64,000 nt of DNA from an uncultured Isosphaeraceae bacterium (GTDB taxonomy: Bacteria; Planctomycetota; GCA-002687715): the NCBI GenBank assembly GCA_964507445.1, contig CAZDQF010000003.1, positions 98,578 to 162,577 of the forward strand. The letters are read 5' to 3'. The notes under the pieces were generated by a model. The model was not told the origin of the DNA, did no database searches, and saw nothing but the letters and a program-made list of their open reading frames with translations. The translations under genes and the position numbers were made by a program. Of this stretch, positions 20,977 to 46,093 are shown piece by piece (position 1 is the stretch's first letter; each line of letters opens with the position of its first letter).

Positions 20977-22698
20977 CTACTGGATGGTCACGTGGAGACC
21001 GCTGGTGGCCGCGAATCCGTTGACCGCGGTGGGGTCCTGGATCCACCACTGCCCGAAGAACTCGAGGCCCGCCAACGCGGGCAGGTCGGGAATCGCCGAC
21101 TGATAGGTCCCGAAGCCGCCGGCCGGTCCGGAGCCCATCAACGTGGTGGTCACCAGCACGAAGGACGGGTCCAGGTGATCCACGTTCAACGGGACACCGC
21201 CCAGGAACGTGCCGAAGGGCGCCGCCACGCTGGAGATCCCCAGGAACGCCAGGGCGCCGCCGCGGGCGTTCCTCACGCCCACCTTGAACGCCCCGTTCCC
21301 GACCTGAGCGGGCGAGACCGCGATCCACTCCGGGGTGCCGCCAGCGCTACCCCAGGACAATCCGTAGATGCTCCCGGAGCCCGCGTTGACCTCGCTGCTC
21401 AAGGTCGGCCTCGAGAAGGCGCCGGTCTCATTGGCCACCCGCGGATCGTCGAAGGCCATGCTCAGGAACGCCACCAGCGCCTGCTCCTCGTTGTTGTTGA
21501 GGGGCAGGTTGACGATCCGGTTGTCCAGGCCATCGGTGAAGTCGCCGCCACGGTCATAGAAGCCCACCACCTGAGCGAGGTTGGTGAACTGACCGTTGTG
21601 CATGTATCGAGAGCGCATCCCGACGTTGCGCAGGCTCGGAGTCTTGAACTCGCCGCGGTCGTTGAAGTTGCCGGTGACGCTCATGCGACCCGGGTCCTCC
21701 TGCCACGGCCGCAGGCCGATGTTGATGAACTCGCTGTTCGACGCCAGTTGTCCGCCATGACACAGCACACAACGACCAGGACCGGTGAAGATCTGGAATC
21801 CCTGCTCCTGCTGCGGCGTGAACACCGTGTTCGGCGGCGCCCCGGCACGGACCGCGTCGATGGGAGCCTGATCCGGGACCAGGGTCCGCTGATAGGTGGC
21901 CAGGGCGAACGCGATACGGGTCGCCGTGATCGCCGAGTCCCCGAACGCCGCCTGGAACAACGCCGGGTAACTGCTGTTGGCTCCCTGGAGCGCCGAGACC
22001 AGGTCCGACGGCAGGTTGGACGCCAGCTGGAGCGGCACCACCGTGTTCAGCTTGCTGATGACGTCGTTCCAGGTCCGGCCGTCGTGGGCCATCTCATCGC
22101 TGGCCAGGATGGGCCCGACGGACTGGCTCTCCAGGGCGCCCCCGAACGGGATGATCACCGCCCCGGTCTGCGGGTCCGTGAACTGACCGGTGGCGCGGCC
22201 GTCCCAGAACAGGGCACCCGGGAACCAGGCGCTGGTGAGGTTCGTGGGCGCGTACCGCGGCGTGACCTGACGGTTGAGGCCGAACGTGCCGTGAGCCAGG
22301 TAGTTCCCGCCGGGACCCTGCCGGATCATCCCCGGCGAACCGTTGCGATCATCCGGAGTCCCGAAGACGCCGTCGGCTCCCGGATGGAGCGCGGTACGAG
22401 GATCGCTGCCGCCGTCCCCGGGACGGTGGCAGGTGCCGCAGGCCACCGTGTTGTCTGACGACAGCTGTTCATCCCAGAACAGCGCCTTCCCCAGGACCGC
22501 CTTCGCCGGCGTGATCGGGTTCATGGGCGGCGCCTGAACCGGAGGCAACCCCGGAGGCGGGGGCGGAGGCCCACCACCCGGAGGAGGGGGCGGAGGCCCA
22601 CCACCCGGAGGCGGGGGCGGAGGGGGTTGCTGCGCCACCGTGACCACGGGGGCAAAAAGCGCAAGAACCACAAGGGTGCTCAGGATCGTTCGCATCAT
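20977..22698 (-). CDS. Secreted di-haem cytochrome c peroxidase/MauG-family protein with poly-Pro N-terminus and extra C-terminal domain
   Basis: Signal peptide; LGKALFWD, CGTCH, FWDGRA, CVLCH, FKTPSLRNV..YMHNG. Confidence 0.88.
   Translation of the reverse strand: MMRTILSTLVVLALFAPVVTVAQQPPPPPPPGGGPPPPPPGGGPPPPPPGLPPVQAPPMNPITPAKAVLGKALFWDEQLSSDNTVACGTCHRPGDGGSDPRTALHPGADGVFGTPDDRNGSPGMIRQGPGGNYLAHGTFGLNRQVTPRYAPTNLTSAWFPGALFWDGRATGQFTDPQTGAVIIPFGGALESQSVGPILASDEMAHDGRTWNDVISKLNTVVPLQLASNLPSDLVSALQGANSSYPALFQAAFGDSAITATRIAFALATYQRTLVPDQAPIDAVRAGAPPNTVFTPQQEQGFQIFTGPGRCVLCHGGQLASNSEFINIGLRPWQEDPGRMSVTGNFNDRGEFKTPSLRNVGMRSRYMHNGQFTNLAQVVGFYDRGGDFTDGLDNRIVNLPLNNNEEQALVAFLSMAFDDPRVANETGAFSRPTLSSEVNAGSGSIYGLSWGSAGGTPEWIAVSPAQVGNGAFKVGVRNARGGALAFLGISSVAAPFGTFLGGVPLNVDHLDPSFVLVTTTLMGSGPAGGFGTYQSAIPDLPALAGLEFFGQWWIQDPTAVNGFAATSGLHVTIQ
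22551..22623. repeat. 27-bp tandem repeat (~2.7 copies) encoding PPPPPPGGG
   Basis: ccggagg(c/a)gggggcggaggcccaccac at 22551, 22578 and (partial) 22605. Confidence 0.9.
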
Positions 22699-22807: not shown

Positions 22808-25363
22808 ATGCGTCGGACTTCGCTGCTGCTGTTGATCCTGCTCTCGCTCCTGCAAAGGGAATCCGCGGCTCAGAACCCCGCGGGGGTCCTCGCCGGTCAG
22901 CAGATCGTGATCTCGCCGGGTCACGGCTACTACTGGCACTCCAGCCTGGGCTGGATCACCCAGCGACCGCTCATCGACGAGCTCATCGAGGACATCCACA
23001 CCCACGAGATCGTCCACGACCACCTGCTCCCGTGGCTGGAAGGCACCGGCGTACGAACGGTCCTCTGCCGCGCCAGGAGCCGCACCGTCGAGGAACACAT
23101 CATCCAGGACGACGACGGCTTCCCCGCCTACCAGGAGACGGGTGCGTGGAGCACGAGCCTCTCCACCGGGTGGGCCGGGTCCACCTATCGTTTCACCGGC
23201 ACGTCGCCCGTGGGCGGCGCCACCGCCACGTTCCGCACCACCATCACCAGGACCGACCACTATCCCGTCTACGTGGCCTTCCGCGCCGGCGCCAACCGCA
23301 CGACCCAGGCCCGGGTAGAGGTCTCTCACGCCGGGGGCACGAGCTGGCGAACCGTGGACCAGACCCGCTTCAACCTCCGCTGGCTCCATGTGGGGACGTT
23401 CCCGTTTCGCGCCATGGAGGAGGCCACCGTGACCCTGTCCAGCGCCTCTCCCTCCGCCGGTGTCATCATCGCCGACGCGGTGAAGATCGGCGACGGGATG
23501 GGCTCCATCGCACGCGGCGGCGCCGTCTCCGGCCAACCACGCTGGAAGGAGTGCTCCCGCTACCACGCCGAGTACTTCGGCGCCCCTCCCTGGGTCTGGG
23601 ACCCCATCGTCGGGGGGCAGGACAACTCCGACGACGTCACCTGCCGCCCCTTCTACGGGGAGTGGTACTGCGACGGGCAGGCGGACCTGTACCTGTCCCT
23701 CCACACCAACGCGGGCGGCGGCAGCGGCACCAGCTCGTTCATCCACAACTCGTTGCTGCCCGCGGGCAGCGTGCCATGGCAGGACGTCCTGCATGGACGG
23801 CTCCTCGGCGACCTGACGGCTCACTGGAGCCCCACCTGGATCGATCGAGGTCAGTTCACCGCCAACTTCGGAGAGCTGCGAGAACTCTCCACCATGCCCG
23901 GCTGCCTGGTGGAGCTGGCCTTCCATGACGACGTGGGCGGTGACGTGGAGGCGATCCACCATCCCGAGTTCCGCGCCATCTCGGGACGGGCCATGGCGAG
24001 GGCGGTCCTGGAGTACCTCGCACCGGGCGCCCCCATGCTCGCCGCCCCGCCAACGTCCGTGGCCATGCGCAACTCCGGCGGTGGTCAGCTGACCCTCACC
24101 TGGAACGCGGTCCCCGGGGCCAGCAGTTACCGCGTGCGAACGGCCGCCGACGGGTTCGGCTACGACGACGGGCAGCTGGTCACCGGCACGTCCTTCACCA
24201 TCAACGGCCTCACCCACGACGCCGTCAGGTATGCCAAGGTGGCCTGCGTCAACGCCTCGGGGACCGGCCCCGACAGCGAACCGGTGGGCGCGCGGGTCGC
24301 GCCCGGGGGCGCCGCTCCCCTCCTCGTGGTGAACGGCTTCGATCGTCGGGACCGCAGCCTCAAGGAGCACCAGAATCCGCGCCATTGGCTGGTGGTGGAG
24401 GGTGGCATCATCCAGGCCGTGACGGCGGCTGGGTACCCGTTCGACGGTTGCACCAACGAGGCGGTCCAGACCCTGTTCGCGCCGCTCACGGATTACACGT
24501 GCGTCGGCTGGATACTCGGAGAAGAGTCCACCCAGGACGAGACCTTCAACGCCATCGAGCAATTCCGGGTCACCTCCTACCTGACCGGCGGCGGACGGGT
24601 CTTCTACACGGGAGCGGAGGTCGGTTGGGACCTGGACTGGCTCGGCACCGCCGCGGATCGCGCCTTCTACGAACAGACCCTTGGTCAGGACTACGTCGCC
24701 GACGACGCGGGCACCTACTGGACCCAGGCCCAGAGCGCCGGAGTCCTGGGATCTCTACCGCCCATGATGTTCGACGATGGCTCGGTCCTCAGCGACATCG
24801 GCTACCCGGACGTGGTCCAGCCGACGCCAGGCACGGGCGGGCAGGTCGTCCTGCGGTATGCCACGGGCGCCGGCGCGGCCGTCCTCCACGGCAACGGTCA
24901 GGTGCTCGGGATCGGGTTCCCACTGGAGGCCCTGGTGGACCCTGCTCACCGCGCCCTGCTCATGGAACGGGTCCTCGCTGCCATGTGTCCGCTGCCGCTC
25001 CACCCGCAGGGGACCCCGCAGCCGGGGCAGTCCCTCGCCGTGGCGGTGGAGTTCCCATCGTCGCCGGGTCAGGTGTACATCGCCGCCGCCGCCGCCGGCG
25101 TGCAGTGGGGGCAGCCGTTGCCCGACGGCCGCACCATCCCGCTGAACCCGGACCCCCTGTTCAGCCTCAGCCTGTCCCCTACGCAACCGTTCTTCAGCGG
25201 CATGACAGGGACGCTCAACAGCCAGGGCGTGGGCGCGTTCCAGGTCCATGTGCCGAACCTGCCGTCCCTCTCAGGATTCTCGGCGTGGTTCTCCGCGGTG
25301 ACGCTGCATTCGAACAACACGGTGGACGAGATCGCGCCCTGGGTCCGACTCCGCGTGCCCTAA
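22808..25363 (+). CDS. Secreted N-acetylmuramoyl-L-alanine amidase (Amidase_3-like) with inserted golvesin-like domain, FN3 and C-terminal domain
   Basis: ISPGHG, YLSLHTNAG, LVELAFHD; VIIADAVK insert; LTWNAVPGASSYRV FN3. Confidence 0.8.
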   Translation: MRRTSLLLLILLSLLQRESAAQNPAGVLAGQQIVISPGHGYYWHSSLGWITQRPLIDELIEDIHTHEIVHDHLLPWLEGTGVRTVLCRARSRTVEEHIIQDDDGFPAYQETGAWSTSLSTGWAGSTYRFTGTSPVGGATATFRTTITRTDHYPVYVAFRAGANRTTQARVEVSHAGGTSWRTVDQTRFNLRWLHVGTFPFRAMEEATVTLSSASPSAGVIIADAVKIGDGMGSIARGGAVSGQPRWKECSRYHAEYFGAPPWVWDPIVGGQDNSDDVTCRPFYGEWYCDGQADLYLSLHTNAGGGSGTSSFIHNSLLPAGSVPWQDVLHGRLLGDLTAHWSPTWIDRGQFTANFGELRELSTMPGCLVELAFHDDVGGDVEAIHHPEFRAISGRAMARAVLEYLAPGAPMLAAPPTSVAMRNSGGGQLTLTWNAVPGASSYRVRTAADGFGYDDGQLVTGTSFTINGLTHDAVRYAKVACVNASGTGPDSEPVGARVAPGGAAPLLVVNGFDRRDRSLKEHQNPRHWLVVEGGIIQAVTAAGYPFDGCTNEAVQTLFAPLTDYTCVGWILGEESTQDETFNAIEQFRVTSYLTGGGRVFYTGAEVGWDLDWLGTAADRAFYEQTLGQDYVADDAGTYWTQAQSAGVLGSLPPMMFDDGSVLSDIGYPDVVQPTPGTGGQVVLRYATGAGAAVLHGNGQVLGIGFPLEALVDPAHRALLMERVLAAMCPLPLHPQGTPQPGQSLAVAVEFPSSPGQVYIAAAAAGVQWGQPLPDGRTIPLNPDPLFSLSLSPTQPFFSGMTGTLNSQGVGAFQVHVPNLPSLSGFSAWFSAVTLHSNNTVDEIAPWVRLRVP

Positions 25364-26262: not shown

Positions 26263-26406
26263 GGCCACATGTTAGCGCGGACCGGTTGTAGACTCATCAC
26301 GGTCGGCGCGTTGACCGTCCCACCGCAATCGTGCCAGAATCGAGGACACCGGGTTCTGGTGGACCCTATCTCCTCCCCCCGCCTCTTGGACCAGGGAGTT
26401 CCCAAG

Positions 26407-28746
26407 GTGTTGAAATCAAAGACCGCCCTCGTCGTGATCCTGACGGTCATCATGCTCGCCCCCGTGGGCGCGCAGCAATTGACCATCAACGGGTCCACGA
26501 CCCACGCCAACCTGCCGCTGGACGGCGCGTTGACCCACACCCTCACTCTGACCGGGCCCGGGAACACCCCGTTCCACTGGATCGCGGATCAGGACCCCGG
26601 GCCCACCGTCACCGGCGGCGTCTCGATCCCTGTGGGGATCACCCCTGCGACCATCGACATCGGCCTCGGGCTGCCGTTCGCGCCCTCCGGATCGGCCGCA
26701 GTGGCCTTCACCGTGGCGGACCTCTCCCTCGTCGGCGTCACCTACTACTCCGCCGGGGTCTTCCTCACGCCGACGGGCACGGTGGTCTCCAACGGCGTCT
26801 CCATGACCTTCGTCCTCCCCGGCGCCGACGCCGGGCCGGACGCGGCGACATTCGTGAACCAGGGCGTGGCCCTGGACGGCTCCGGCATCCTGAACGGCGC
26901 GGGGCAGGTGCCCGCCGGCGCCAACCCCCTATGGATCGTCACCGGCGCCCCGGCGGGGTCCAACCCTCAGCTTCAGGACGCACAGAGCGCCTACCCCACG
27001 TTCTCCGCTGATGCCCCTGGCGCCTACACCGTGGAGCTGCAGGTCAGCCTCCCCGGGGGACTGAGCGCGGACCAGGTCCAGGTGGACGTGTTCGACGTCC
27101 AGCTCTCCGGCACCTCCGACGGCGCCTTTGTCACGGGCCCCGTCAGCCTCAACGGCACCGCGGATGGCCCTGGCATCGCCAGCCTTGAGATCAACGGCGC
27201 GCCCGTGAGCCTGGCGGGCAACGCCTTCTCCGGCGGCACCCTGACCCCGGCGGACGTCATGAACCCCATCACGGCCACGGTCACCACCGCCGCGGGACAG
27301 GTGATCGAACGCACCATCACGGTGATCAACGGGAGCTCCGCTCCTATCGGCTCCATCGGCAGCCCGGGCGCGGCCACACGCCTCGCCGGCGTCAGCCTCG
27401 ATCTCCTCGAACCGCCCGTGGAACTGGCCCTGGGGGCGCTGCCGCTGAACCAGGTCTTCACGGCCATCCCCACGATCCCGCTGATCCCGTCCGGCCTGCT
27501 CACCGCGAACCTGACCTTCACCGGCGCCAGCTTCGATCCCGCCACCGTGGACTTCGATCTCTTCCCCACCAGCTGTGCCATCGGCATGGCCACCACCCTG
27601 AACTCCCTCTCCATCACGGCGGACATCACCGGGACCCAGCTGTTCGGCGGTCCCTACAGCGAGACCGCCACCATCACCGCCGATTCCGTGATCATCTCCG
27701 GTGAGATGGTGGTGGGGTCGAATGCGCAGGGCGGGGTCGAGGTCACGATCCAGAACACGGACGCCACCTTCGTCAACTTCAACGCTTCCATGACCGGTGT
27801 CCTGGGCCTCTTCGTGGGACTCCTGGAGCCCCTCATCGAAGGTGCCCTGGAGGCCGCTTTGGAGAGCTCTCTCAACCTCATCCCCACGACCCTCAACCCC
27901 CTGCTCTCCGGCCTCGTCATCAGCGTCGACCTCTCCACCACCGGTGTCCCGCTCCAGGTCGACCTGCCCATCAACAGCGTCTGCTACGACGCCGCCGGGC
28001 TCACCCTGGTGAATGACTTCCGGGCGACACCCACGCAGACCAGTCCGTCAGCGCCCGCCCTGACCGGCTACCTCACCACCACCGGAGGAGTCCCGATCTT
28101 CGGCCCGGTCACTCCGGTCAACGGCGCCGCCTACGACTTCGCCCTGGGTATCGACGACGAGCTGCTCAACCAGACGTTCGCCGCCCTCACGACCGCTGGC
28201 GCCCTGGATCTGGACCTGGGAGCGGTGGGGGGAACCGCCATGACCGCCGGGATGGCGGCCACCATGCTCCCCGGAGCGGGGTTCGACCGCTTCGATCCCG
28301 GCACCCCGGTGACCGTCGAGGTGCGCCAGACCACGGCGCCCGCCGTCACCTTCTCCGCCACCGGGGACGCAGCCAGCCTCAGCCTCGGCAACCTGCGGCT
28401 CGTCTTCACCGCGGCGCCCAACCCCGGCGATCGGGTCCCCGTCCTCGAAACGGGCGTGACCGCCCACTCTGCCCTCACGGTCACCATCGACCCCACGACC
28501 GGGACCCTGTCCATCACTCCGGGAGCGACCACCGTGACCTCCACCGCCGGCGGCGCCATGGCCGGCGGTGATGCGGTGGCCGCGCTCGTGGGCATCGACG
28601 GCATCGTGCAGCAGATCCTGCCGCTGTTGACCCAACCTCTGAACGCCATCCCGCTGCCGTTCACCAACGTCGGTGGCGGAGTGGTGGAGATCTCGGTCCC
28701 GTCCAGCGGCCCGAGCATGCTGGTCACGTGGCTCGACGCGCCCTGA
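26407..28746 (+). CDS. Large secreted hypothetical protein (PKD/Ig-like domains plus possible BPI/LBP-like region)
   Basis: Signal peptide; DAGPD..V.LDGS...PTFSADAPGAYTVEL PKD-like module; T/G/A-rich. Confidence 0.65.
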   Translation: MLKSKTALVVILTVIMLAPVGAQQLTINGSTTHANLPLDGALTHTLTLTGPGNTPFHWIADQDPGPTVTGGVSIPVGITPATIDIGLGLPFAPSGSAAVAFTVADLSLVGVTYYSAGVFLTPTGTVVSNGVSMTFVLPGADAGPDAATFVNQGVALDGSGILNGAGQVPAGANPLWIVTGAPAGSNPQLQDAQSAYPTFSADAPGAYTVELQVSLPGGLSADQVQVDVFDVQLSGTSDGAFVTGPVSLNGTADGPGIASLEINGAPVSLAGNAFSGGTLTPADVMNPITATVTTAAGQVIERTITVINGSSAPIGSIGSPGAATRLAGVSLDLLEPPVELALGALPLNQVFTAIPTIPLIPSGLLTANLTFTGASFDPATVDFDLFPTSCAIGMATTLNSLSITADITGTQLFGGPYSETATITADSVIISGEMVVGSNAQGGVEVTIQNTDATFVNFNASMTGVLGLFVGLLEPLIEGALEAALESSLNLIPTTLNPLLSGLVISVDLSTTGVPLQVDLPINSVCYDAAGLTLVNDFRATPTQTSPSAPALTGYLTTTGGVPIFGPVTPVNGAAYDFALGIDDELLNQTFAALTTAGALDLDLGAVGGTAMTAGMAATMLPGAGFDRFDPGTPVTVEVRQTTAPAVTFSATGDAASLSLGNLRLVFTAAPNPGDRVPVLETGVTAHSALTVTIDPTTGTLSITPGATTVTSTAGGAMAGGDAVAALVGIDGIVQQILPLLTQPLNAIPLPFTNVGGGVVEISVPSSGPSMLVTWLDAP

Positions 28747-42837: not shown

Positions 42838-42923
42838 GCCGAGGTGGCGGAATTGGCAGACGCGCTAGGTTCAGGTCCTAGTTCCCTTTTTTGGGAGTGG
42901 GGGTTCAAATCCCCCCCTCGGCA
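42838..42923 (+). tRNA. tRNA-Leu(CAG)
   Basis: GCCGAGG/CCTCGGC acceptor stem, GGCGGAATTGGCAGACGC D-arm, CTAGG-TTCAGGT-CCTAG anticodon arm, long variable arm, GGTTCAAATCC; CCA not encoded. Confidence 0.95.
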
Positions 42924-43784: not shown

Positions 43785-45056
43785 TCAGTTGAATGCGAGC
43801 GTGACGACGTTGCTCATCTTGCTGATGCCGGTAGGGGCCATGAAATCCAGGACGCCCACCTGTATATACACCCGAGACCCGGCGAACGCGCCGACGGGAA
43901 GCGGCGTGAGATCCATCAGGATCGCGGCGTTGCCCGACCCGTCCAGGGTCCCCACCCAGTTGGTGGTGAATGGCGGGACTCCCACGCCCAACGACTGCAG
44001 GAACAAGGGGGTGGGGTTCAGAGGGGTGCCCCTCGGATCACCGCCGCCAAAGGTGATACCCGGAAAGATGGACTCGGAGATCACCGTGGTGTAGGGGGTG
44101 TTGGCGTGCTGGGGAAAGGACACCGCCAAGCCGAACAGCCCCTGCGTCGCACCCGTACCCGGGTTGGGCGGTCCGGTCAGGTGGGGCGCGATGGCGGCAC
44201 ACTGCAGGATGCCGAACGTGGAGTTCCCGAGCACCAGGGTCGCCGCGCCCGTGGGGTCCACGTGCATCAGCCGGGAACCCAGCATCCCCCCTGCCTCCGT
44301 AACGTAGAAGCCACCTTCCCCATCGGGCAGGATGTCCTTGATGTTCCCCAGGACCCCTGCCGGAACCCACGTGGTGGGGACGCCGCCGTTGCGCGGGATG
44401 CGGACGATGGAGTCGGTGGAAGACAGCACCACGGCGTAGTCGCCGTTGGGGAAGTTGGCCACTCCTGTTGGGGTGGAGAGACCGCTGGCGATGGTGGTCA
44501 CGGTCCCGGCGTTGTCAATGCGCTGGAGCTCTCCCTGCAACGGCAGGGTCAGGACGTAGTCCCCGAACCCGAAGGTGCCGGTCGGCTCCACGATGACCGT
44601 GAACGGGTTGCCGATGAGGGTCGCCACGTAGGTCCAGGCACCCGCAGCATCGACCCGGAGGATGGAGGACGGGGAGCCACCGGGGGTGCCACCCCACGAG
44701 CCCGTGGCGTAGCCAGCCACGATGAACTCGCCGTTGTGGTCCTGCGCGATGCGGTTGGGGGTGTTGGTCACGAGCCCAGCAGCAGCGGAGTTGCCCAACA
44801 CGTCGACCCGCGTCAGGGTCAACCCGTTGAAGTCCGCGAAGACCACGTCACGGTCCCTCGTGACCACGATCCCCGTGGGCCAGATCAGCGTCGAGGCGCT
44901 GTTGAGGACCGTCGTGGTCCCGGTCTGCGGGTCGTACATGTTCGCCGATGGCGGCGAGGTGTCGGTCCACACAATGGAGCCACCGGGGATAGGCAGGGGG
45001 CCCTGAGCGCAGAGACACGAGACCGCGAGGAGCACGACACAGAGTGAGCGGCACAT
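43785..45056 (-). CDS. Secreted NHL/beta-propeller-like protein with C-terminal domain
   Basis: Signal peptide; repeated PTGI/PNRI/PTGV blade motifs. Confidence 0.7.
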   Translation of the reverse strand: MCRSLCVVLLAVSCLCAQGPLPIPGGSIVWTDTSPPSANMYDPQTGTTTVLNSASTLIWPTGIVVTRDRDVVFADFNGLTLTRVDVLGNSAAAGLVTNTPNRIAQDHNGEFIVAGYATGSWGGTPGGSPSSILRVDAAGAWTYVATLIGNPFTVIVEPTGTFGFGDYVLTLPLQGELQRIDNAGTVTTIASGLSTPTGVANFPNGDYAVVLSSTDSIVRIPRNGGVPTTWVPAGVLGNIKDILPDGEGGFYVTEAGGMLGSRLMHVDPTGAATLVLGNSTFGILQCAAIAPHLTGPPNPGTGATQGLFGLAVSFPQHANTPYTTVISESIFPGITFGGGDPRGTPLNPTPLFLQSLGVGVPPFTTNWVGTLDGSGNAAILMDLTPLPVGAFAGSRVYIQVGVLDFMAPTGISKMSNVVTLAFN

Positions 45057-45197
45057 GGAGGGACTCCGGGTTGGGGGATTCGGGTCCCCCCATTGTGGAC
45101 TCCGCAGTTCCCTGCGTCAAAGGTCACGAGACGCAGCTTATTATGGTCAGCGGAGAGGGCCCCGCGGTTCGCAAACTCGGCTACCCTCCTTGCAACA

Positions 45198-45692
45198 GTG
45201 GCCAGGAACACCAACAAGAAGCGTGACTCCGATGACCAGTCCTCGGTCAAGGTGGTCGCCCGCAATCGGCGGGCGCTGCACGACTTCCACGTGGAAGAGA
45301 CCGTGGAAGCGGGCATCGTCCTCGTCGGCACGGAGGTGAAGAGCCTGAGGAACGGCCTGGCCTCCATCCGTCAGGCGTTCGCCCGGATAGACAAGGGCGA
45401 GGCCTGGATCATCGGCGCCCACATCCCCGAGTACGGCGCCGCGAGCTGGACCAATCACGATCCGGACCGCCGTCGCAAGCTGCTCCTCCATCGCCGGCAG
45501 CTGCGCAAGCTGTCCCGGGCCGTGCAGATCGCCGGCCGGACCATCATCCCCCTCCAACTCCACTTCAACGAGCGAGGCATCGCCAAGGTCCTGCTGGCGC
45601 TGGTCACGGGAAAGCGCCGACACGACAAGCGAGCGGACGCGGCCAAGCGCGAGGCTCAACGAGAGATTTCCCGCACGCTCCGGGGCGGGTAA
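45198..45692 (+). CDS. smpB: SsrA-binding protein
   Basis: NRRA.HDF, EAGIVLVGTEVKSLR, RKLLLH, GKRRHDKR; GTG start inferred. Confidence 0.96.
   Translation: MARNTNKKRDSDDQSSVKVVARNRRALHDFHVEETVEAGIVLVGTEVKSLRNGLASIRQAFARIDKGEAWIIGAHIPEYGAASWTNHDPDRRRKLLLHRRQLRKLSRAVQIAGRTIIPLQLHFNERGIAKVLLALVTGKRRHDKRADAAKREAQREISRTLRGG

Positions 45693-45739: not shown

Positions 45740-46093
<354 letters not shown>

Follow-up and report, generated by a model that had tools for sequence, protein, structure and literature searches.

A C-terminal beta-sandwich domain on diverse exported proteins of a Planctomycetota-like lineage and its possible role as an envelope docking handle

Three genes in the window (the whole stretch of DNA that was analysed, 64,000 nucleotides) encode exported proteins with different cargo, and the question arises whether their C-termini are copies of one domain and, if so, what this domain does for its carriers. 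The preliminary description had aligned the tails of an amidase and a propeller protein by eye, had noticed a looser version in a peroxidase and had proposed a lineage-specific export or surface-attachment domain. The genes and domains concerned are the following:

20977-22698, minus strand: gene of an exported MauG/CCP-type di-haem peroxidase (ORF, 573 aa)
20980-21357, minus strand: peroxidase terminal domain (last 126 aa, short subtype, HMM i-E 1.2e-18)
22808-25363, plus strand: gene of an exported amidase (ORF, 851 aa; signal peptide; Pfam Golvesin_C at aa 99-227, Amidase_3 at 290-400 and fn3 at 414-493, then a region without assignment and, last, the terminal domain)
24971-25360, plus strand: amidase terminal domain (aa 722-851, long subtype, final HMM i-E 3.3e-32)
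43785-45056, minus strand: gene of an exported SGL/NHL-like propeller protein (ORF, 423 aa, signal-peptide-like N-terminus)
43788-44210, minus strand: propeller terminal domain (aa 283-423, long subtype, final HMM i-E 1.4e-27)

The genes had been placed correctly before, while the domain starts had been given about 5-7 residues inside the span matched by the HMM; in the amidase this match stops 2 residues short of the protein end. Both visual inspection and a hydrophobicity rule give all three proteins a Sec-like N-terminus (in the amidase the signal-peptide-like MRRTSLLLLILLSLL..AAQ), and the cargo differs as had been described. The peroxidase matches Pfam CCP_MauG at 1.2e-33 and, below their cut-offs, TIGR03791 and TIGR04039; the propeller protein gives weak matches to Pfam SGL/NHL and to the NCBIfam family ScyE_fam.

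One homologous domain without a family name

The amidase, propeller and di-haem peroxidase tails are one homologous domain of approximately 125-130 residues. Pairwise BLASTP of the tails is modest (amidase and propeller 31% over 134 aa, 32 bits; amidase and peroxidase 37.5% over 56 aa, 25 bits; propeller and peroxidase 14 bits, E 0.85), and the homology is settled by profile methods. An HMM built from the three tails retrieved 21 ORFs at 1e-4 in the first round, the seeds counted, and after five more rounds it converged at 65 ORFs (1e-4) or 68 ORFs (1e-3) among the 37,643 six-frame ORFs of the 5.0 Mb genome, which is 92% complete. The same HMM found nothing among the reversed ORFs at 1e-3 (best value 0.086). 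Each of the 68 ORFs bears one copy, and the copies fall into two subtypes, of which the short one lacks a helix-bearing insert; hhalign relates the short to the long subtype with 98.4% probability (E 5e-15, 119 columns). The looser version noticed in the peroxidase proved to be this short subtype, and the family is far larger than was seen at first. A search for homologues of the amidase tail gave, besides the protein of the window itself, two orthologues, none of the three bearing a name, and with the whole amidase as query an orthologue in an "uncultured bacterium" record (L069) is 64% identical, tail included.

Judged from its sequences, the family is real and has no name in Pfam or NCBIfam, as the preliminary description had suspected. 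Searching 63 tails against both collections at E up to 10 gave no family in more than one of the 63 and only unrelated single matches; CBM, Ig and macroglobulin (MG/A2M) families were equally absent. Among 97 full-length database representatives no family occurs in more than 13, and the tallied matches are cargo families. Sequence profiles of PDB chains gave no family either, the best match, complement C4, being insignificant (E 0.011). The nearest ESM Atlas clusters are labelled 'hypothetical protein, none common', and DUF7453, the only named cluster returned, scored 0.76, which is under any useful level. A literature search found no description of the domain.

The fold is, according to the predicted models, a generic Ig-like or macroglobulin-like beta-sandwich of eight or nine strands in 126-130 residues with no terminal helix. 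AlphaFold2 modelled the amidase tail with a pLDDT of 95.1 and a pTM of 0.87 (nine strands and one short helix) and the peroxidase tail, which has the same strand order, with a pLDDT of 91.5. The top structural matches in VIA-align were 6tav_A (Z 9.8, 104 residues, rmsd 3.0) and 9qk2_F (Z 8.4, 100 residues, rmsd 3.1); the remainder of the lists is flat, with Ig-like domains at Z 7-8, LILR Ig domains and the Big domains of intimin and invasin at Z of about 8, a value that, as the notes of the tool state, unrelated sandwiches commonly reach. Foldseek against the PDB returned antibody V domains only (E about 3e-4, TM about 0.5).

The domain is acidic and almost free of lysine (K 0.2%, R 1.4%; pI 4.05-5.76 across 63 copies). 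Both domain and cargo are poor in Lys, Glu and Arg, with 0.7% lysine in the cargo against a background of 2.5%. The mean column identity of the alignment is 22%, and conservation is highest at positions with Gly, Pro or Asp (G19, G80, D83, G86, P95, P98, G102 and D113). These columns look structural, and no conserved binding face is evident in the alignment. Columns 59, 61, 83, 113 and 123 (numbered by the amidase tail) are conserved Asp/Asn and might form a metal site.

Placement, cargo and distribution

The position of the domain within its carriers is strongly biased. In 59 of the 68 ORFs the copy ends at most 10 aa from the stop, in 53 of these 2-3 aa before it, and the long subtype is C-terminal in all of its 37 copies. 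Eight copies follow directly upon the signal peptide, with 370-790 residues downstream of them, and one is a fragment. The same picture is seen elsewhere: 147 of the 150 best database representatives carry the domain at the C-terminus and three at the N-terminus, two representatives (P0001 and P0002) have tandem copies, and G163, a distant genome that is complete, has the domain at the C-terminus in 24 of its 26 copies. In the genome of the window the N-terminal copies are found on Kelch and DHOR proteins, among others. The chains close with a beta-strand, whose last residues usually follow the pattern hydrophobic-x-[IV]-[QP], the last residue being Q in 20 and P in 18 of the 59.

Signal peptides were called by home-made heuristics in place of a trained predictor. 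A crude hydrophobicity rule finds a Sec-type N-terminus in 62 of the 68 carriers; under a stricter rule a signal peptide is seen in 43 of the 68 domain ORFs and in 540 of the other 4,854 ORFs, so that, in a rough tally, the domain is borne by 43 of the 583 ORFs of the genome with a signal-peptide-like start. The scan of the genome gave the many signal-peptide proteins with terminal matches that the preliminary description had expected, and where weak profile similarity, few copies or a missing bias would have spoken against a shared tag, we found strong similarity, 68 copies and a bias towards both terminus and secretion. Four proteins consist of a signal peptide and the domain and nothing else. 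One carrier is an inner-membrane Ser/Thr kinase of 1,490 aa, which has a single predicted membrane helix and the domain as its outermost part.

The cargo is highly diverse. Pfam assigns unrelated cargo families to 26 of the 59 proteins scanned, among them M14, M10, reprolysin with BNR, sulfatase, GSDH, CotH with LTD, MBL with LTD, FG-GAP/ASPIC, beta-helix and DUF1028; the cargo of the genome also comprises an amidase, peroxidases and NHL propellers. In the 97 database representatives FG-GAP (13), PD40 (8) and NosD (5) are found next to S8, C11, thioredoxin and Pkinase. Two genomes that lack the domain encode homologues of the peroxidase cargo as ORFs of 355-416 aa that match only query residues 46-427, which speaks for a modular domain. 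In a tree the domain copies cluster by cargo family, the propeller domain of the window for instance with the tails of three propeller paralogues, which indicates that the expansion proceeded mostly via duplication of genes for whole proteins.

The domain is restricted to a lineage, and its expansion tracks this lineage. Within the same order it is present in 22 of 22 genomes searched, with 17-132 matches apiece. In a sample of the phylum 65 of 301 genomes are positive, and within every family tallied the domain is present in all genomes or in none; copy numbers reach at least 150 in each of two genomes (G053 and G104). In a library of 1.84 billion proteins the domain accounts for 15,770 cluster representatives. 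Irrespective of function this is a clear annotation gap, since neither Pfam nor NCBIfam has a model for them, and a model made from the domain alignment would label thousands of 'hypothetical' proteins.

Docking, export, binding or capping

That the window holds a lineage-restricted, unnamed terminal domain on diverse exported cargo is borne out by these results, whereas the export or surface attachment assumed for it stays an interpretation, as no translocon, peptidase or receptor was found. We consider it plausible, though short of probable, that the domain is a docking or retention handle. The carrier would cross the cytoplasmic membrane via Sec, and the domain would then dock or retain it, by non-covalent contact, on a component of the cell envelope or surface that the carriers share, in the manner that dockerin, SLH or LysM-type modules do in other lineages. 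The handle role, with docking rather than translocation and the surface rather than the periplasm, is what we infer from the following points. The copies directly behind a signal peptide, the tandem copies and the kinase anchored in the inner membrane fit a docking module better than a strict C-terminal signal, and the four proteins made of signal peptide and domain alone count in the same direction. In favour of a handle we also count the copy number, the terminal placement here and in other genomes, the signal-peptide-like N-termini, the unrelated cargo, the expansion along the lineage and the modularity. Paucity of Lys, Glu and Arg is common in extracellular proteins, and the corresponding composition of domain and cargo counts, as a matter of general knowledge, towards an extracellular location. 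On the other side, the absence of a conserved binding face counts against a docking handle. Docking modules are usually preceded by a Pro/Thr-rich linker, and it counts likewise against this role that inspection by eye of the 30 residues preceding each domain revealed no recurring linker of this kind. Amidases, MauG-like peroxidases and GSDH are classically periplasmic, so that the surface location of the carriers is not established. The S-layer, named in the preliminary description as one possible site of attachment, receives no support from anything in the analysis.

The strong C-terminal bias and the patterned chain end would suit a recognition signal equally well, and the next candidate is a signal for export across the outer membrane. 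It would be read in the periplasm by a lineage-specific translocon, perhaps with removal of the domain or its exchange for an anchor, and would work like the C-terminal domain (CTD) in type IX secretion systems (T9SS), with unrelated parts. We regard this as somewhat unlikely and prefer the handle. Besides the extreme C-terminal placement in all three data sets and throughout the long subtype, the diversity of the cargo is consistent with such a signal, and its all-or-none occurrence in every family tallied is expected of a lineage-specific machine. T9SS cargo amounts to tens to hundreds of proteins per genome, a range that includes the tens to at least 150 copies seen here. Five secretins are encoded in the genome, which means that routes for folded proteins exist. 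The predicted sandwich would also agree with the beta-sandwich fold of the T9SS CTD (PMC4804311).

However, apart from the eight copies with 370-790 residues behind them, the tandem copies and the carrier held in the inner membrane, the search for a machinery argues against the export signal. Gene neighbourhoods and the largest exported ORFs yielded no candidate for a translocon or peptidase, no receptor, scaffold or partner was identified, and no giant barrel-like candidate was found among the ORFs of at least 1,200 aa. The T9SS CTD model TIGR04183 (Por_Secre_tail) matched neither the 63 tails nor anything in the whole genome, and the SprA model TIGR04189 gave no candidate in the 92% complete genome; in both genome searches the control genomes were equally matchless. 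The same applies to DUF1559, for which genome and controls gave nothing, and to PEP_CTERM, a short model that had no match at 1e-3 in the genome or in its control, so that none of these four genome searches shows absence. No sortase was found in the genome by a search in which the controls gave matches. One exosortase gene was found (G000:C16:3042-3797). Ser/Thr kinases, sulfatases, PSCyt/PSD1 proteins, an M43 peptidase and an ABC/FtsX transporter recur within 6 kb of the 68 genes; considered as anchor or partner, these neighbours provide no obvious candidate.

A wider form of the export reading assumes an undescribed system for secretion across the outer membrane or for surface attachment in a Planctomycetota-like lineage, which would match T9SS in function, though not in the origin of its components, with the domain as its cargo tag. 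It would then handle between about 20 and several hundred proteins in each genome, and the rare copies at an N-terminus or on a kinase would have arisen by secondary re-use of the fold. We judge this to be unlikely.

It is likewise doubtful, to about the same degree, that the domain is a ligand- or substrate-binding module, adhesive or lectin-like, with a conserved framework and a variable surface, tethering its carrier to polymers, particles or other cells and not to the envelope of the producer. The predicted fold belongs to a class found in adhesin and receptor domains (the macroglobulin domains at the head of the structural matches, Big domains and LILR Ig domains), antibody V domains are the best Foldseek matches, and the Gly/Pro/Asp framework is kept while the rest varies. 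Stand-alone copies behind a signal peptide and the copy that a sensor kinase bears outermost would fit such a module as well. However, no single substrate suits peroxidases, peptidases, an amidase, a sulfatase and CotH kinases alike, and the domain lacks the conserved surface residues, aromatic or charged, that usually mark carbohydrate-binding sites. Ig repeats of adhesins form internal tandem arrays, and a single terminal copy is atypical of them. Least probable, and in our view very improbable, is a passive structural cap, a stable, protease-resistant and charge-poor sandwich that aids folding, solubility or survival and has spread by duplication with its carriers and without a common partner: the clustering by cargo family, the structural look of the conserved residues and the lack of a partner agree with it, but the domain is joined to dozens of unrelated cargo families almost always at a terminus, is retained across families of the phylum at tens to hundreds of copies per genome and also occurs with no cargo to stabilise.

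If the sorting or anchoring handle is real, the domain marks a large share of the proteins that a whole lineage exports. The enzymes displayed or released by these mostly uncultured bacteria could be predicted in one step, and the domain would be a defined bait for its partner machinery, as the T9SS CTD and PEP-CTERM are for theirs.

Relation to known C-terminal tags and docking modules

A close parallel is the T9SS CTD of Bacteroidota, with which the domain shares the C-terminal sandwich, as predicted, the diverse Sec cargo and the restriction to a lineage. The T9SS CTD is a beta-sandwich at the extreme C-terminus of Sec-exported proteins (PMC4804311). It is removed by a sortase-like peptidase, and an anchor is attached. 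The domain presented here has no sequence match to it and appears larger, with eight or nine predicted strands in about 125-130 residues against seven Ig-like strands in about 70-100, and a minority of its copies is N-terminal or in tandem whereas the T9SS CTD is always C-terminal. No T9SS CTD chain is among the 50 structural matches listed by VIA-align.

The best structural matches for both models are macroglobulin domains, as in alpha-2-macroglobulin, C3/C4/C5, TEP1 and CD109. These form internal tandem arrays within one giant protein, in contrast to the single terminal copies observed here.

PEP-CTERM-type signals are about 25 residues long, in which a motif is followed by a membrane helix and the tail is basic. 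Like the present domain they tag the C-terminus of many exported proteins per genome, but in place of motif, helix and basic cluster we find a folded sandwich, as predicted, that ends in a beta-strand, contains only 1.6% K+R and has no terminal helix. The PPC domain is a C-terminal beta-sandwich on secreted enzymes; it is presumed to assist in secretion or in binding the substrate and is often removed afterwards. It is largely confined to peptidases, and no Pfam match to PPC was seen in the tails.

Dockerin, SLH and LysM modules and cell-wall-binding repeats resemble the proposed handle in their use: they are modular, stand at either terminus and give unrelated exported enzymes a common non-covalent attachment. 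The domain is not known to be related to them in sequence or fold, and they differ from it also in their frequent linkers, none of which was seen here by eye. Their partners are cohesin, a secondary cell-wall polymer and peptidoglycan.

Kinship of the three tails

The three proteins whose tails served as seeds are encoded in the window (G000:C3:98578-162577), where a tmRNA and a tRNA were also found:

20977-22698, - strand: di-haem peroxidase gene, 573 aa; CCP_MauG, 1.2e-33
22808-25363, + strand: amidase gene, 851 aa; Golvesin_C, weak Amidase_3 and weak fn3 matches (Pfam)
42838-42923, + strand: tRNA
43785-45056, - strand: beta-propeller protein gene, 423 aa; weak SGL/NHL matches
45740-46092, + strand: tmRNA, 152 bits

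A scan of the three proteins gave no Pfam or NCBIfam match inside any of the tails. Pairwise BLASTP among the tails (32, 25 and 14 bits) is only suggestive of kinship; profiles are decisive. An HMM built from the three tails matched 21 ORFs at 1e-4, counting the seeds, in a set of 37,643 six-frame ORFs (70 aa or longer) from the source assembly G000 (5.0 Mb, 40 contigs, 67% G+C). After five further rounds it converged on 65 ORFs at 1e-4 and 68 at 1e-3, one of the latter a fragment, with one significant domain copy in each ORF, and the reversed ORFs of the same assembly gave zero matches at 1e-3. The amidase, propeller and peroxidase tails are therefore akin, as the preliminary description had proposed by eye. 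It had also regarded the peroxidase tail as a looser relative, and in a tree of the copies this tail indeed belongs to a short subtype (n = 26), the other two to a long subtype (n = 37), with hhalign joining the subtypes at 98.4% probability (E 5e-15).

Some further features of the window stand out. In the peroxidase, the signal peptide is directly followed by a nearly pure Pro/Gly run of about 37 residues (22519-22629, - strand; QQPPPPPPPGGGPPPPPPGGGPPPPPPGLPP..), which may act as a rigid spacer near the N-terminus, with the terminal domain at the C-terminal end. The stretch from the amidase to the next genes holds an 825-aa Ala/Gly/Thr-rich open frame (26269-28746, + strand) with an internal hydrophobic stretch resembling, by eye, a signal peptide and no terminal domain. 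The ORF directly upstream of the tmRNA (45093-45692, + strand) is, by eye, a putative SmpB.

Position, cargo and fold of the terminal domain

In 59 of the 68 ORFs the domain ends 10 residues or fewer before the stop codon, and in 53 of these 59 the distance is 2-3 residues. The usual chain end is hydrophobic-x-[IV]-[QP]; the last residues of the 59 include 20 Q, 18 P and 6 N. Eight of the 68 copies stand directly behind the signal peptide, with 370-790 residues after them, about 375 in six of the eight; the cargo here is Kelch repeats (3), a DHOR di-haem oxidoreductase with CBM6 (1) or free of Pfam matches (4). All six N-terminal copies in the tree are of the short subtype, and every long-subtype copy is C-terminal. 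A home-made rule rather than a trained predictor assigns 62 of the 68 carriers an N-terminus that is basic and then hydrophobic after the start codon, typically ending AQ; a stricter rule is passed by 43 of the 68, against 540 of the 4,854 other ORFs considered. Four proteins consist of signal peptide and terminal domain and nothing else.

Cargo in G000 comprises peptidases (M14, M10, reprolysin), further enzymes (sulfatase, PQQ glucose dehydrogenase, amidase, two MauG-like peroxidases), CotH+LTD, metallo-beta-lactamase+LTD, FG-GAP/ASPIC, NHL and other propellers, beta-helix, DUF1028 and DUF7948, and 33 of 59 carriers in one Pfam scan had no Pfam family at all. The proposal of a common tail on unrelated secreted proteins, to be checked by an HMM scan of the proteome, is thus borne out by many copies that are mostly terminal, on diverse cargo and mostly with signal-peptide-like N-termini. 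Since the copies cluster by cargo family in the tree, much of the expansion is whole-gene duplication.

The domain is acidic throughout (pI 4.05-5.76 in 63 of 63 copies; Lys 0.2%), and its most conserved columns are Gly, Pro and Asp. The cargo parts of the 68 carrier genes are acidic as well (median pI 4.5), with less Lys (0.7% vs 2.5%), Glu (2.8% vs 5.7%) and Arg (3.8% vs 6.6%) than other long ORFs. AlphaFold2 on the family alignments gave confident models of the amidase tail (pLDDT 95.1) and the peroxidase tail (91.5) with identical strand order, the long subtype having one additional short helix. Foldseek returned only weak matches to antibody V domains. Exhaustive structural alignment placed macroglobulin MG domains on top (Z 8.4 and 9.8), above flat lists in which intimin/invasin, LILR and fn3-like sandwiches score Z 7-8. 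For these predicted models, the alignments settle the fold class and nothing beyond it.

Family identity and distribution

Neither Pfam nor NCBIfam gave a recurrent match among 63 tails at E up to 10; the NCBIfam model choice_anch_E (NF033208) matched one of the 63 at 4.7e-4 and no second member of the alignment. The best match in a PDB sequence-profile search was complement C4 (E 0.011), and the ESM Atlas offers as nearest clusters 'hypothetical proteins' without a name; where the phylum of a member is known, it is mostly Planctomycetota. No account of the domain was found in a full-text literature collection that covers only a minority of subscription journals.

All 22 genomes searched from the same order are positive, with 17-132 matches apiece. 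Of 301 genomes sampled evenly across the phylum, 65 are positive, G000 counted, and each family tallied is all-or-none: 5/5, 7/7, 4/4, 8/8 and 6/6 in carrier families, 0/16, 0/16, 0/11 and 0/11 in the others. Both the absence of a named family and the restriction to a lineage had been anticipated, and both hold. Two genomes, G053 and G104, have at least 150 copies each (150 of 150 scored candidates matched, from 411 and 445, respectively). In G104, C77:1653-9584 (- strand) is a tandem array of five consecutive carrier frames of about 550-600 aa, each with the domain at its end. A distant, complete genome, G163, yielded 26 copies (24 C-terminal, 1 N-terminal, 1 internal), and in two non-carrier genomes, proteins homologous to the peroxidase cargo are without the tail. 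Among 1.84 billion cluster representatives, 15,770 proteins matched with an E-value of 1e-3 or better, and 4,146 at 1e-10. The best 150 are C-terminal (within 10 residues) in 147 cases and N-terminal in 3, with tandem copies in 2; 97 of them, scanned with Pfam, have cargo as diverse as in G000. Among these is a Ser/Thr kinase of 1,490 aa, in which a single membrane helix is predicted and the domain occupies the far end of the chain.

A proposed common handle and its possible machinery

One terminal copy each on dozens of unrelated proteins exported by Sec, in tens to hundreds per genome and in certain lineages only, is most likely the mark of a shared handle, not of a catalytic accessory. Because several of the cargo types are classic periplasmic proteins, the carriers could reside either there or at the surface. 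Known handles are of two kinds, docking modules and export signals, the T9SS CTD being an example of the latter (PMC4804311).

We tentatively favour docking or retention of the carriers by the terminal domain over an export signal, because N-terminal, tandem and stand-alone copies and a kinase anchored in the inner membrane would sit easily with a binding module and poorly with a C-terminal translocation signal. Against docking stand the absence of a candidate partner, of an evident conserved surface and of a linker ahead of the domain, as well as the strictly C-terminal long subtype. This last feature would suit an export signal like the T9SS CTD, a reading that the same N-terminal, tandem, stand-alone and kinase-borne copies make less likely. 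That the domain is a ligand-binding adhesion module seems unlikely, and that it is a passive structural cap improbable.

Searches of G000 for T9SS CTD and SprA and for PEP-CTERM, run without positive control, gave zero matches (for PEP_CTERM, none at 1e-3 among 87 candidates); sortase was not found, with working controls. Neither the carrier gene neighbourhoods nor the largest exported ORFs of G000 hold a candidate partner or machinery. The following genes were located in G000:

C16:3042-3797, + strand: the one exosortase, PF09721 1.5e-39, within a 583-aa open frame
C6:207083: secretin gene
C8:146487: secretin gene
C10:78436: secretin gene
C14:99719: secretin gene
C14:111175: secretin gene
C2:401130-405254, - strand: very large signal-peptide protein
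C12:83155-94992, - strand: very large signal-peptide protein
C12:95384-100678, - strand: very large signal-peptide protein
C27:26434-31254, - strand: very large signal-peptide protein

The four very large proteins (1,375-3,946 aa) have a common chain end, approximately W-x-(R/K)-(F/Y)-P-D-x-(L/I), unlike that of the terminal domain, which may represent a second C-terminal family. The two C14 secretin genes lie 12 kb apart, and about 20 kb downstream C14:131738-136996 codes for a protein of 1,753 aa whose N-terminal segment is strongly hydrophobic and, by eye, putatively pseudopilin-like. PSCyt1/PSCyt2/PSD1 proteins are also encoded in G000; together with the taxa of the Atlas clusters they make Planctomycetota the probable phylum.

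On present evidence, the terminal domain is an unnamed, very abundant family that would be akin in its working to known terminal handles and belongs to none of them.
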